Numbered from the stretch's first letter, positions 47,599 through 51,198 are shown. The stretch: DNA of 64,000 bases from Candidatus Omnitrophota bacterium (GCA_043821445.1 JBDRCT010000040.1:26745-90744), one strand, 5' to 3'. Translations and numbers: made by a program. The notes: generated by a model not told the origin, from the letters alone.

Positions 47599-48519
47599 AT
47601 TACACTTCAATGTCTGAAATCTATCAAAGAATTCAGGTCGCACTCTCCGCACGAGGTCCTTCTGATCGATAACGGCTCCCAGGACGGTATCGGGGCGCTG
47701 GTCGCTGAACAATTCCCGGAAGTACGGCTTATTGAAACGGGCCGGAATGACGGCTTCAGCCGCGCAAACAATCTGGGGATCGTGAACGCTCATGGAAAGT
47801 ATCTTCTCCTTCTTAATAGCGACACGAAGATCCTCGAACCGGTCTTTGACCGGTTTGTTCAGTACATGGAGGCGCATTCTGAAGCAGGATGTATCGGGCC
47901 CCAACACGTAGGCGGGAACGGACGGCATCAGATCTCTTACGGCAAGTTTCCGGGTCTTTTTTCCGAGGTCCTCCGGAAGATCGTGGACTATCAGATCGCG
48001 CTCGATGATCCGAACATCCGGGGATATCTCGCGGAGTATTGCTCCACAGAACGGGAGGTAGACTGGCTTTCCGGGTCCTGCCTGCTGCTGCGCCGCGAAG
48101 CCCTGCGCCAGGCAGGGCTTTTGGACGAAACTTTTTTTATGTATTTTGAGGATATCGATCTTTGCAGAAGGTTACGCGACCACAGGTGGAAGATCGTTTA
48201 TTGTCCGATGTCAAAGATCCTCCATTACAGCGGGCAATCGGTGAAGGAGAACATCCTCGCGGGACTTATCGCCTACCGACAAAGTCAGATCTATTTTGCC
48301 CGAAAGCATTATGGGCGCCGTGGGGACTATCTCGTCCGTATTCTGCTTTTTTTGAAATTTGGTGTCATCGGACTCCAGGCCTTGGCGGAATTTACCACGC
48401 AGAAACTTCTTAGGCGTGGTGCTCATCCGGCCTATGTCAAAATGCTTCTCTCCAAGAAAGTCTTCGAGATGATCTTTCAGCACAACAGGATGCGGCCCGT
48501 TGAACCGGTGTTGCCGTAG
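47548..48519 (+). CDS. GT2 glycosyltransferase (WbbL-like)
   Basis: LSIIIVHYKTRD ... LIDNGSQD ... DED motif. ATGA overlap with the upstream ATPase. Confidence 0.75.
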   Translation: MKPVVLSIIIVHYKTRDITLQCLKSIKEFRSHSPHEVLLIDNGSQDGIGALVAEQFPEVRLIETGRNDGFSRANNLGIVNAHGKYLLLLNSDTKILEPVFDRFVQYMEAHSEAGCIGPQHVGGNGRHQISYGKFPGLFSEVLRKIVDYQIALDDPNIRGYLAEYCSTEREVDWLSGSCLLLRREALRQAGLLDETFFMYFEDIDLCRRLRDHRWKIVYCPMSKILHYSGQSVKENILAGLIAYRQSQIYFARKHYGRRGDYLVRILLFLKFGVIGLQALAEFTTQKLLRRGAHPAYVKMLLSKKVFEMIFQHNRMRPVEPVLP

Positions 48520-49588
48520 AGACAGACTCAATAGCAGGATGGTGAATGGCGGAATGAGGATTAAATCACCGGCCCGTCAATATGCGCATCTCCGGAAGGC
48601 CATTGCCGGCGAGCTTCTGTCCGGGGCCGAGCGGGTCCGGCGGTCTTACCGGGAAGAGGTCGTACGCACCGCCTGGAACATCGGGCGGATCCTGCGGGGG
48701 ACCCTGGGACTCGAGGACCGGCCCAGCGCCGAAAATGCCGCGCTCGTCAGACGCCTCTCTAAGGACTTCGGTAAGTCTGACTCTTTCTTCTACGATGCTG
48801 CCAAATTCCACCGGTTGTATCCCTCGAAAGCACCAGTCGCGCTCAGTTTGTCGCATTATTCTCTTTTGATCCGCCTGGAAGATCCGGGGGAGCGTCTCGC
48901 CCTTGAAAAAAAGGCCATCGCCGAAGACATTAATGCCAAAGATCTCCGGATGTACACGCGCCTCGATCCATGGCAAGCCCCTGCTGACGGAAAGAGGGTT
49001 GTCCTCACCGCCCCGCGCGGGCGTCTTTATCATTATCGCGCGTCGAACGCACCCAAGGATGGGCGGGTCTTGATCGACATCGGGTTTGGGATCGAACGAG
49101 ACGTACGCTTTAATAGCAAAAAAAGTTTCCACTCAGGGCTTATTGTGCGGGCAGTCAGGACCGTTCCTGGCTTGAAGAGTAGCCCCATGGAGAATTATTC
49201 TGCAAAGATAGCGCCTTTCGACAAAAACCGGCTCTATACCTATGCCGCCTCGCTTGTGCGAGTGATCGACGGGGATACGCTGATCGCGCGCGTCGATCTA
49301 GGTTTCCGGACATGGATCACCCAGACGTTCCGCCTCCGGGGGATCGATGCGCCCGAGATGACCTGCGCTTTAGGACAGAAAGCAAAGGCCGAGGTAAAGG
49401 CCCGTTTGGCTCCCTGCGCCTGTCTTGTGATCAAGACTTACAAACAGGAAAAATACGGCCGTTTTCTAGCGGATGTGTTCTACCTGAAAGGAGTTGAGGA
49501 CCGAGACCGGATCCTGCGTGAGGGCGCTTTTTTGAACCAGGAGCTTTTGGATGAGAGGTTGGCGGTGCCGTACGAAGAGGAAGGCTAG
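48500..49588 (+). CDS. DUF1016_N (YhcG N-terminal)-like domain fused to a staphylococcal-nuclease (SNase/thermonuclease) domain
   Basis: N-terminal WNIGR ... LSLSHYSLLIRLEDPGERLALEKKAIAEDINAKDLR matches the recalled DUF1016_N pattern. C-terminal VIDGDTL ... RLRGIDAPE ... EKYGRFLADV SNase motifs. Visibly GC-rich. Confidence 0.55.
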   Translation: MNRCCRRDRLNSRMVNGGMRIKSPARQYAHLRKAIAGELLSGAERVRRSYREEVVRTAWNIGRILRGTLGLEDRPSAENAALVRRLSKDFGKSDSFFYDAAKFHRLYPSKAPVALSLSHYSLLIRLEDPGERLALEKKAIAEDINAKDLRMYTRLDPWQAPADGKRVVLTAPRGRLYHYRASNAPKDGRVLIDIGFGIERDVRFNSKKSFHSGLIVRAVRTVPGLKSSPMENYSAKIAPFDKNRLYTYAASLVRVIDGDTLIARVDLGFRTWITQTFRLRGIDAPEMTCALGQKAKAEVKARLAPCACLVIKTYKQEKYGRFLADVFYLKGVEDRDRILREGAFLNQELLDERLAVPYEEEG

Positions 49589-49848
49589 AAGCACGAGATC
49601 CTTCTCCGCCTTTGGCGGATCAGGATGACGGGAAGAGCAAAACGGACTGCGGGTTGATGGAGGAGGGCGGTGCCGTACTTGTTCCTTTGAACACGGTGCC
49701 GTCACTTTATTTGGAATGACGTGTACGGCGACCGTACGAAGAGAAGGGCTTGGGCCGCACCTTGGGCGGAACGACAGGCTGGAGACCCAATGAACACGAC
49801 CATGAAAAAACAACTTGCAAAGTTGCTTTTTCATGGTAGCATTTAGGT

Positions 49849-51012
49849 ATGATAAAGCGACAGGCGATCCTGAAACAGATACGCGCGGCTTTTCGCTATG
49901 GCCGTGTCGTGGCGATCCTGGGGCCCAGGCAGTGCGGTAAGACGACCCTGGCGCGGCAATTCGTTCCGCCTCATTCCGAAAACTATTTCGATCTCGAGGA
50001 TCCCGTAAGTCTCGCGCGTTTGTCGGAACCTATGACCGCCTTATCCGGCCTTCGCGGAACTGTGGTTCTCGATGAGGTCCAACTGGAGCCAAAGCTCTTC
50101 TCCGTCCTTCGCGTTTTAGCAGACCGGAAACCTCTTCCCGCACGGTTTTTGATCCTTGGCAGCGCGTCTCCGAGTCTCGTCAAGCATTCGGCCGAATCCT
50201 TGGCCGGGCGATTGGCCCGCGTTGAAATGGGAGGATTCTGTGTCAGGGAAGTGGGCTACAAGAACGACCTCAAGCTTTGGCTTCGCGGGGGATTCCCGCT
50301 CTCGTTCCTCGCCAAGACCGACGCGGACAGTTTTGCGTGGCGGAAAGATCTGATCATGAGTTTTATCGAAAAAGATCTTCCGGCTCATGGAATGTCACTG
50401 CCTCCCGTTACGCTTCTACGTTTTTGGACGATGCTCGCTCATTATCACGGCCAGATCTGGAACGCGGCGGAACCGGCGCGATCTCTCGGGATCAGCGAAA
50501 TGACCGTGAAGCGCTACCTGGATATACTGTCCGGACTTTTCCTGGTGCGTCAGTTGCAGCCCTGGCATGCTAATATCCAAAAAAGGCAAGTTAAAACCCC
50601 TAAAATATATATCCGGGATACCGGGATCCTGCATCAGTTGTTGGGGATTCGTACTAAGGAAGAGCTTCTCTCTCACCCAAAATGCGGCGCTTCCTGGGAA
50701 GGATTTGTGGTCGGTGAGGTGATCCGGTCCCTTCAACCCGATGAAGCTTTTTTTTGGGCGACCCATAACGGCGCCGAGCTCGAACTCATCATTAAAAAAG
50801 ACGGGAAGCTCTACGGGATCGAATGTAAACGCCGGGACGCGCCCGCCATGAGCGCATCGATGAAAATAGCACTGAAAGATCTAAGGCTGGAACGTATGGC
50901 TGTGATCTATCCCGGGACCCGGCGCTATCCTTTGTCCGGACAGGTCGAGGTCGTACCGTTTTCTTTTGTTCGAGGCGGGATGCGCGCTGTCTTTCCGCCG
51001 CACAAATCCTAG
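49849..51012 (+). CDS. COG1373-type AAA+ ATPase (AAA_14 + DUF4143), second copy
   Basis: Walker A ILGPRQCGKTT. C-terminal ELELII ... GIECKRR PD-(D/E)xK-like. TTGCAA ... TAGCAT promoter-like sequence immediately upstream. Confidence 0.75.
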   Translation: MIKRQAILKQIRAAFRYGRVVAILGPRQCGKTTLARQFVPPHSENYFDLEDPVSLARLSEPMTALSGLRGTVVLDEVQLEPKLFSVLRVLADRKPLPARFLILGSASPSLVKHSAESLAGRLARVEMGGFCVREVGYKNDLKLWLRGGFPLSFLAKTDADSFAWRKDLIMSFIEKDLPAHGMSLPPVTLLRFWTMLAHYHGQIWNAAEPARSLGISEMTVKRYLDILSGLFLVRQLQPWHANIQKRQVKTPKIYIRDTGILHQLLGIRTKEELLSHPKCGASWEGFVVGEVIRSLQPDEAFFWATHNGAELELIIKKDGKLYGIECKRRDAPAMSASMKIALKDLRLERMAVIYPGTRRYPLSGQVEVVPFSFVRGGMRAVFPPHKS

Positions 51013-51021
51013 GCAAAATCG

Positions 51022-51198
51022 ATGAACGACAGGATGAAGAAAAAACACTCGCATACCACGATAGCACGAAAAGCTGCGGCTCTGGCGGCTCTTAAGGCGA
51101 TCCAGGCTGCGTCCGTCCGGAAGGGACTGGACAAGATGACGATGGATGAGATCGATGCTGAGATCCAAGAGGTCCGCAGGGAGCGTCGCTGTCTGTAG
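51022..51198 (+). CDS. small ORF (58 aa), basic N-terminus and charged helical C-terminus; possible DNA-binding/antitoxin-like protein
   Basis: ATG 51022 to TAG 51198, too short for the ORF track. MNDRMKKKHSHTTIARKAAALAALKAIQAASVRKGLDKMTMDEIDAEIQEVRRERRCL. Confidence 0.3.
   Translation: MNDRMKKKHSHTTIARKAAALAALKAIQAASVRKGLDKMTMDEIDAEIQEVRRERRCL

Follow-up and report, generated by a model that had tools for sequence, protein, structure and literature searches.

Positions 48500-51198 of a 64,000-nucleotide (nt) stretch of DNA from a Candidatus Omnitrophota bacterium (GCA_043821445.1, JBDRCT010000040.1:26745-90744; the whole stretch is called the window here) hold three open reading frames (ORFs): a nuclease that combines a DUF1016_N-type domain with a staphylococcal nuclease (SNase) domain, an AAA_14/DUF4143 ATPase (ATPase-2) and an ORF of 58 amino acids (aa). 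An earlier, sequence-only reading had proposed them as an undescribed defence module. The ORFs, domains and sequence features that it described are all present, coordinates included, but the module is not supported: the segment 48500-51198 is not one conserved defence system. We consider it likely that the region is instead a variable spot in a polysaccharide gene cluster, made up of a resident nuclease, a separate ATPase unit and the stump of an antitoxin gene. Radical-SAM, Wzy_C, GT2, carbamoyltransferase, GT9 and GT4 genes surround the locus, and the nuclease gene begins 35 nt past the GT2 stop codon in the same orientation as the cluster.

The neighbourhoods of the nuclease family carry this conclusion. 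A word-indexed search returned at least 265 family proteins; 411 loci were found in species-representative genomes and at least 436 in metagenomes. The census covers the best 80 of the 411 genome loci, with flanks of up to 10 kb, and the best 80 of the 436 metagenome loci, with flanks of up to 6 kb. These flanks were searched for ATPases with five diverse AAA_14/DUF4143 queries and, for the genome set, with an iterated hidden Markov model. An AAA_14/DUF4143 gene is present in 5 of the 160 loci: it is directly adjacent to the nuclease in three (downstream in L015 and L038, upstream in L201) and non-adjacent within the flanks in two more. With 5 ATPases per 1.78 Mb, and about 25% of that sequence lying beside the nuclease, we estimate a binomial P of ~0.1 for three adjacent genes, which is not significantly above chance. 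Each of the three adjacent ATPases is from a different subfamily. Within the clade of L038, the pairing is found in none of 15 loci at 44-59% identity.

When the 1,259 ORFs of the flanks were clustered all against all, no conserved neighbour emerged. Of 150 immediate neighbours surveyed with Pfam and PADLOC, most belong to housekeeping families and a few are Fic, AbiE, ORF6N and helix-turn-helix (HTH) genes; the homologues carried on Leptospira plasmids are likewise solitary. Conserved co-occurrence, chosen beforehand as the test of a two- or three-gene module, is absent.

The orthologous loci give the same picture. In relatives at 60-86% identity, the nuclease again lies next to GT2, Wzy and carbamoyltransferase genes, and none of the nine loci L001-L009 has an ATPase beside it. 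The gene order in L001-L003 is Wzy_C-GT2-nuclease-carbamoyltransferase, with neither ATPase nor small ORF. In L005 the nuclease is followed by a Phd-like antitoxin with a PIN_3 toxin, an MNT+HepT pair and then the carbamoyltransferase gene; the order in L013 is AbiEi/AbiEii, nuclease, RHH+PIN pair. Since L005 and L013 carry toxin-antitoxin (TA) or abortive-infection (Abi) genes at this site and L001-L003 carry none, the interval between the nuclease and the carbamoyltransferase gene appears to be a hotspot for small accessory modules. In the window, 49743-51191 replaces 47 nt of L001. The features of the locus, including a second ATPase gene further upstream (ATPase-1), are the following:

46358-47551, + strand: ATPase-1, AAA_14/DUF4143, flanked by a 77-bp direct repeat at 46199-46275 and 47522-47598
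48554-49588, + strand: nuclease gene, 344-aa stand-alone nuclease
49589-49665, + strand: spacer segment not clearly matched in relatives (weak similarity to L005), with the hairpin CTCCGCC-TTT-GGCGGA inside
49666-49742, + strand: relic of a second allelic nuclease 3' end with its conserved downstream hairpin region, ~93% identical to L001 8976-9054
49793-49848, + strand: putative upstream control region of ATPase-2, an inverted repeat over a promoter-like element, homologous to ATPase-2 relatives elsewhere
49849-51012, + strand: ATPase-2, AAA_14 + DUF4143, of COG1373 / PADLOC PDC-S01 type
51022-51198, + strand: 58-aa ORF, relic of a truncated Phd/YefM-type antitoxin, the homologous part being only 51072-51185
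51192-51279, + strand: conserved stretch 5' of the carbamoyltransferase gene that bounds the variable insert on the right, aligning with L001 9102-9199

ATPase-2 (NCBI MFH1800891.1) matches AAA_14 (3.7e-22) and DUF4143 (1.8e-43) in Pfam and PDC-S01 (4.2e-83) in PADLOC, and shows the Walker A sequence GPRQCGKTT and the motif ELELII..IECK. It thus unites an AAA_14 P-loop and DUF4143 in one solitary protein, the arrangement that marks PDC-S01 and COG1373. The ATPase with a PD-(D/E)xK-like C-terminus that had been read from the sequence is therefore confirmed in both domains, DUF4143 being classed as PD-(D/E)xK. More than 8,000 homologues exist, at 63-70% identity across phyla. Four of their contexts, which we inspected, are mutually unrelated and lack any nuclease; the neighbours are trehalose, two-component and other genes.

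Homology between ATPase-2 and relatives in other contexts (L090, L088, L089) extends from ~49793-49801 to ~30 nt before the stop codon, and so takes in DNA upstream of the gene. An 18-nt inverted repeat in this upstream part (49799-49816 and 49820-49837) overlaps a promoter-like element, TTGCAA-N17-TAGCAT. The palindrome arms CCATGAA/TTCATGG are conserved upstream of ATPase genes in L090 (1197-1239), L089 and L084, and in L090 the repeat overlaps a good promoter, TTGACG-N17-TAGTAT. The palindrome region may therefore represent an autoregulated promoter of the ATPase gene with a putative operator. Because the upstream palindrome travels with the gene, and because homologues are solitary in unrelated contexts, ATPase-2 is best described as a separately acquired single-gene unit with its own control region. 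Homologues P0122-P0240, at 63-70% identity, are spread over Omnitrophota, Planctomycetota, Verrucomicrobiota and Nitrospirota, many of them on contigs of only 1.3-3 kb; frequent horizontal transfer of such genes, along with assembly breaks, is suggested.

The 58-aa ORF (NCBI MFH1800892.1, annotated as a hypothetical protein) has no match in Pfam. Over 41 of its 58 residues it shares 73% identity with the C-terminal part of the L005 antitoxin, whose gene there precedes that of the PIN_3 toxin. No PIN gene is found downstream of the ORF in the window, and the N-domain of Phd/YefM is also missing. The alignment identifies the ORF as a relic of a truncated Phd/YefM-type antitoxin, left from a TA pair that relatives have kept. 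The small ORF of the proposed module exists, but as such a relic, with 41 alignable residues, it does not qualify as a system component.

The spacer between the nuclease and ATPase-2 contains both the partial repeats of the nuclease 3' end and the GTACGG-CGA-CCGTAC palindrome (GTACGGCGACCGTAC, 49723-49737) that had been noticed in it. The sequence GGTGCCGTACGAAGAG at 49564-49579 has partial copies at 49660-49678 and 49732-49750. Two allelic nuclease 3' ends occur in the clade: ..PYLFL* or ..PYMAL* in L001 and L004, and ..PYE(G/E)EG.. in L005, P0017 and P0018. The in-frame end in the window, ..PYEEEG*, is of the L005/P0017 type, and GGCGGTGCCGTACTTGTTCCTTTGA at 49666-49690 (..AVPYLFL*) is a second 3' end lying ~80 nt past it. 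In L001, the counterpart of 49666-49742 (8976-9054) is the true gene end with the region downstream of it. The spacer folds better than 200 of 200 shuffled sequences (z -3.64). We considered a known RNA for this structured segment and rejected it, as there is no Rfam match and a scan found no tRNA near the locus.

The 77-bp direct repeat (score 85; shuffled sequences reach at most 25) duplicates the junction between the Wzy_C 3' end and the GT2 5' start on both sides of ATPase-1. Copy A corresponds to the L004-type allele (MPH..) and copy B to the L001-type allele (MK..). In addition, the last 8 codons of ATPase-1 (IGSENSTS*) copy the end of Wzy_C (LGSENHAS*), and an ORF at 46219-46353 opens with a pseudo-copy of the GT2 N-terminus. 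As the two copies are different alleles, the repeat is read as a recombination product and not as a target-site duplication; a transposon-like insertion of the ATPase genes was rejected. We infer that the spacer repeat and the 77-bp repeat are scars of cargo exchange through recombination between diverged alleles; for the spacer repeat, a duplication with a regulatory role is not supported. A 17-bp repeat around ATPase-2 was dropped from consideration, its score of 24 being within the shuffled range (maximum 27), and no consistent flanking repeats were found at other ATPase loci.

ATPase-1, the other AAA_14/DUF4143 gene, is 30% identical to ATPase-2 and was inserted independently of it; L001-L003 do not have it, and Wzy_C and GT2 adjoin directly in those loci. 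The ATPase-1 unit (46304-47491) is 77% identical in DNA and 84% in protein to L038 11151-12338, from another Omnitrophota metagenome-assembled genome (MAG), and the similarity takes in ~54 nt upstream with a TTGAAA..TAGAAT promoter-like element. This L038 relative sits directly downstream of a distant nuclease paralogue (36% identical).

The nuclease ORF that opens at TTG 48500 (362 aa) runs into the end of the GT2 gene. Its start is probably ATG 48554, because the identical protein MFH1800890.1 (NCBI, 'thermonuclease family protein', Candidatus Omnitrophota MAG) has 344 aa and homologues align from there. A search of the window revealed no second copy of the nuclease. At a GC content of 0.568, the gene is in the top 3.7% of segments of the same size; its description as conspicuously GC-rich holds against the upstream genes (0.48-0.51) but not against the downstream genes (0.55-0.57), which equal it.

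Three parts are distinguished in the nuclease: a ParB/KorB-like helical HTH domain corresponding to DUF1016_N (aa 1-136, 48554-48961), a small β-barrel (aa 155-220, 49016-49213) and the SNase domain (aa 226-344, 49229-49585). The C-terminal domain is an OB-type barrel with helices that can be superimposed on staphylococcal nuclease. The window protein matches PF00565 at 28.4 bits (cut-off 21), as do 107 of 111 homologues, and a profile of the 111 homologues matches thermonuclease structures at 1.2e-8, with the motifs DGDT, R..D.PE and KYGR aligned. The reference active site consists of D21, D40, T41, R35, E43 and R87 (S. aureus numbering). At the catalytic and Ca2+-ligand positions, the window protein has D241, D265, R260, E268 and R303, with Ala at the position of T41; its active site is intact. 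Across the family, the equivalents of D21, R35 and R87 are present in all 111 homologues, E43 in 108 and D40 in 95, and the T41 position is occupied by A, C or T.

The N-terminal assignment is less direct. DUF1016_N (PF17761) scores 15.9 bits on the window protein, below the cut-off of 32.8, and matches 94 of the 111 aligned homologues (best 1.1e-31), 21 of which also match HTH_ParB. PADLOC models of the YhcG type (PDC-S02) match residues 19-150 at 7e-8, the best of them covering positions 4-146 of 351 and so falling short of a full-length match. By transitivity, the DUF1016_N homology of the window protein can be taken to hold. The fusion as read from the sequence is supported, SNase above threshold in the window protein itself and DUF1016_N through its homologues. 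In agreement with the nuclease-domain swap proposed for this protein relative to YhcG/DUF1016, the C-terminal family of YhcG (PF06250, PD-(D/E)xK) matches neither the window protein nor any of the 111 homologues. The nuclease is probably cytoplasmic, as the aligned homologues open directly with the helical domain and no leader is visible.

Two variations on this architecture were noted among homologues. D40 is replaced by Asn in 15 of 111 sequences, and the E43 position is also lost in a few; four D40-Asn homologues that we inspected have GINTK[EIA] in place of GIDAPE, and the D40-Asn proteins are largely those with the HTH_ParB tag. Their nuclease may be inactive. The homologues with D40-Asn or E43 loss are P0038, P0042, P0043, P0056-P0058, P0063, P0066, P0069, P0070, P0077, P0092, P0098, P0106, P0113 and P0118, and the loci listed with the D40-Asn and paralogue observations are L019, L029, L035, L050, L058, L063, L069 and L076. 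The nuclease paralogue in L038 has a possible N-terminal extension of 36 residues (9890-9997) that resembles a signal peptide (MKKTVLLGTLLTLFLISPSVSWSEAP..); if real, it would represent a secreted variant, and it may be an artefact of longest-ORF calling.

Members of the family occur in Omnitrophota, Latescibacterota, Leptospiraceae, Gammaproteobacteria MAGs, Marinamargulisbacteria and others, and full-length members are found on 24 Leptospira plasmids, annotated as 'DUF1016 N-terminal domain-containing protein'. Paralogues number from 3 to 8 or more in several genomes, at a mutual identity of 30-93%, and split or truncated copies occur in the family. One Gammaproteobacteria MAG (JAWSVA01) has at least 8 paralogues at 53-80% identity. 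A phage origin of the fusion was rejected, since phage genomes and IMG/VR contigs yield matches to the SNase domain only and no full-length nuclease. We found no paper describing the DUF1016_N-SNase architecture, and no functional study of either the DUF1016/YhcG or the DUF4143/COG1373 family in the literature on anti-phage defence.

The DNA similarity between paralogues of one genome (up to 94%) ends within ~10 nt of the ends of the coding sequence (CDS) in L033 (9985-11011) compared with L047 (9985-11008), and the pairs L029/L058 and L069/L076 show the same CDS-bounded similarity. Such borders suggest a gene-sized unit of duplication or conversion. In a Latescibacterota genome, short interspersed or tandem repeats with units of ~40-150 nt lie just 3' of nuclease paralogues (L033 11174-11344, L047 11100-11726).

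Elsewhere in the window, a small TA/Abi patch is present at 19551-21154. It comprises an AbiEii-like match (19551-20156) and, at 20759-21154, a PIN_3-like gene with 52% identity to the PIN gene adjoining the nuclease in L013. At the other end of the locus, a promoter scan placed a promoter-like TTGATT-16-TATACT at 51206-51233, upstream of the carbamoyltransferase gene.

As a working model, the nuclease would bind double-stranded DNA through its HTH domain, use the SNase domain for Ca2+-dependent cleavage and work on its own, as do the solitary YhcG/DUF1016 PD-(D/E)xK nucleases. The cargo beside it would be swapped when diverged alleles of the flanking genes recombine, leaving tandem allelic relics behind. 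Action against foreign DNA is the most likely role of the nuclease, to which we would give at most about a third of our confidence. It is proposed because YhcG/DUF1016 proteins, which share the N-domain, are solitary, are found within restriction-modification loci and mobile elements, and count among the listed defence candidates. Patchy distribution and the expansion of paralogues also speak for such a role. An extended form of this model is possible, though we hold it to be doubtful. The DUF1016_N(ParB-HTH)-β-barrel-SNase family would then be a widespread single-gene nuclease against mobile elements, the SNase counterpart of YhcG, restrained by the low Ca2+ level of the cytoplasm or by its own DNA-binding domain until infection or envelope damage sets it free, and the nuclease-carbamoyltransferase site would act as a small defence/TA hotspot whose cargo is exchanged through allele recombination.

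Several points weigh against parts of this interpretation. Regarding the separateness of the genes, the nuclease-ATPase order recurs on the same strand in the window, L015 and L038, with three ATPase subfamilies; a weak facultative association may exist, and the sample is small. ORF calling in the flanks was crude, and the inspection was confined to the best 80 loci per scan. Regarding defence, the synteny in the window clade is stable across 60-86% identity, which is unusual for a fast-turnover defence gene. The defence role of the nuclease is suggested only by analogy and by occasional TA/Abi neighbours. Finally, in the single published test that we found, the candidates that proved protective in E. 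coli against T4, T5 or T7 did not include those representing PDC-S01 and PDC-S02 (preprint 10.1101/2024.09.26.614923).

The stable position next to GT2, Wzy and carbamoyltransferase genes, the orientation shared with the cluster, the start 35 nt after the GT2 stop and the predominance of housekeeping genes among family neighbours would all suit an ordinary cellular enzyme of DNA repair or turnover or nucleotide salvage, unrelated to genetic conflict. We consider this unlikely in view of the patchy spread of the family, the diverged paralogues, of which a genome can have up to 8 or more, and the split, truncated and plasmid-borne copies. TA and Abi genes moreover adjoin the nuclease in several loci, and the N-domain is common to YhcG/DUF1016 proteins, reported in restriction-modification loci and mobile elements. 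It is very unlikely that the nuclease gene is a selfish, homing-type or otherwise mobile gene-sized unit. Identity among the paralogues is 30-93%, with no near-identical pairs; terminal repeats are absent, as is linkage to a tRNA or integrase; the synteny is stable in the window clade, and phage collections contain SNase-domain matches without full-length copies. The many paralogues and fragments per genome are in line with mobility, as is the ending of paralogue similarity at CDS borders (L033 and L047 are 94% identical over 9985-11011 only), but CDS-limited gene conversion or selection explains these sharp borders equally well.

The least probable of the readings, and a highly improbable one, is that a single anti-phage system comprises the nuclease, ATPase-2 and the 58-aa ORF, with the ATPase sensing foreign DNA or loading onto it and the nuclease serving as effector. 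Adjacency in 3 of 160 loci with different ATPase subfamilies, its conservation in no clade and its absence from the 9 orthologous loci of the window clade and the 15 loci of the L038 clade argue against it. So do the control region and solitary occurrence of ATPase-2, the truncated state of the antitoxin-like ORF, and the 260-bp structured spacer with a gene relic that separates the nuclease from ATPase-2. What it has in its favour is that the genes lie side by side on the same strand of the window, that nuclease and ATPase genes also adjoin in L015 and L038 and, in the reverse order, in L201, and that both families match PADLOC candidate models. The reading as a variable spot holding a resident nuclease, an autonomous ATPase gene and an antitoxin relic thus remains the one we prefer.

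In practical terms, the nuclease-ATPase pair is not worth pursuing as a two-component defence system, which spares cloning and phage challenge on the wrong unit. The analysis provides a high-confidence structural model for a large unstudied family, in which a ParB-like DNA-binding domain is joined to a staphylococcal-type nuclease in place of a PD-(D/E)xK nuclease, and the members on plasmids of cultivable Leptospira make the family open to testing. The locus is also a clear case of TA pairs and solitary ATPases swapped at a fixed site by allele recombination, with readable scars left behind. We conclude that the nuclease family is worth biochemical attention and that the locus, taken as a whole, is an accessory-gene hotspot of an ordinary kind.

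Gabija, Septu, PARIS and Lamassu are two-gene systems of an ATPase and a nuclease, defined by the conserved operonic pairing of co-evolving partners. The window resembles them in its side-by-side ATPase and nuclease genes; the pairing here, in contrast, is found in 3 of 160 loci and involves unrelated ATPase subfamilies. As members of the AAA_14/DUF4143 family (COG1373; PDC-S01), whose defence role is a 'guilt-by-embedding' prediction, ATPase-1 and ATPase-2 are typical and show nothing distinctive: single-gene, abundant and spread across phyla. Compared with Phd/YefM-PIN pairs, the 58-aa ORF retains the C-terminal 41 residues of the antitoxin, while the DNA-binding N-domain of Phd and the PIN gene are missing. 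The nuclease differs from staphylococcal nuclease (PF00565; YncB-like) in its probably cytoplasmic location, in its fusion to an HTH domain and a β-barrel, and in the lack of the last SNase helix (profile positions 1-78 of 107). Its closest parallel is YhcG/DUF1016 (COG4804; PF17761 + PF06250; PADLOC single-gene candidate PDC-S02). The PD-(D/E)xK C-terminus of YhcG is replaced by the β-barrel and SNase domain in the window family, and our neighbour census shows no link to restriction-modification genes. Common to both are the helical DUF1016_N-type domain, a stand-alone gene with no conserved partner, several paralogues per genome and occurrence on mobile elements.

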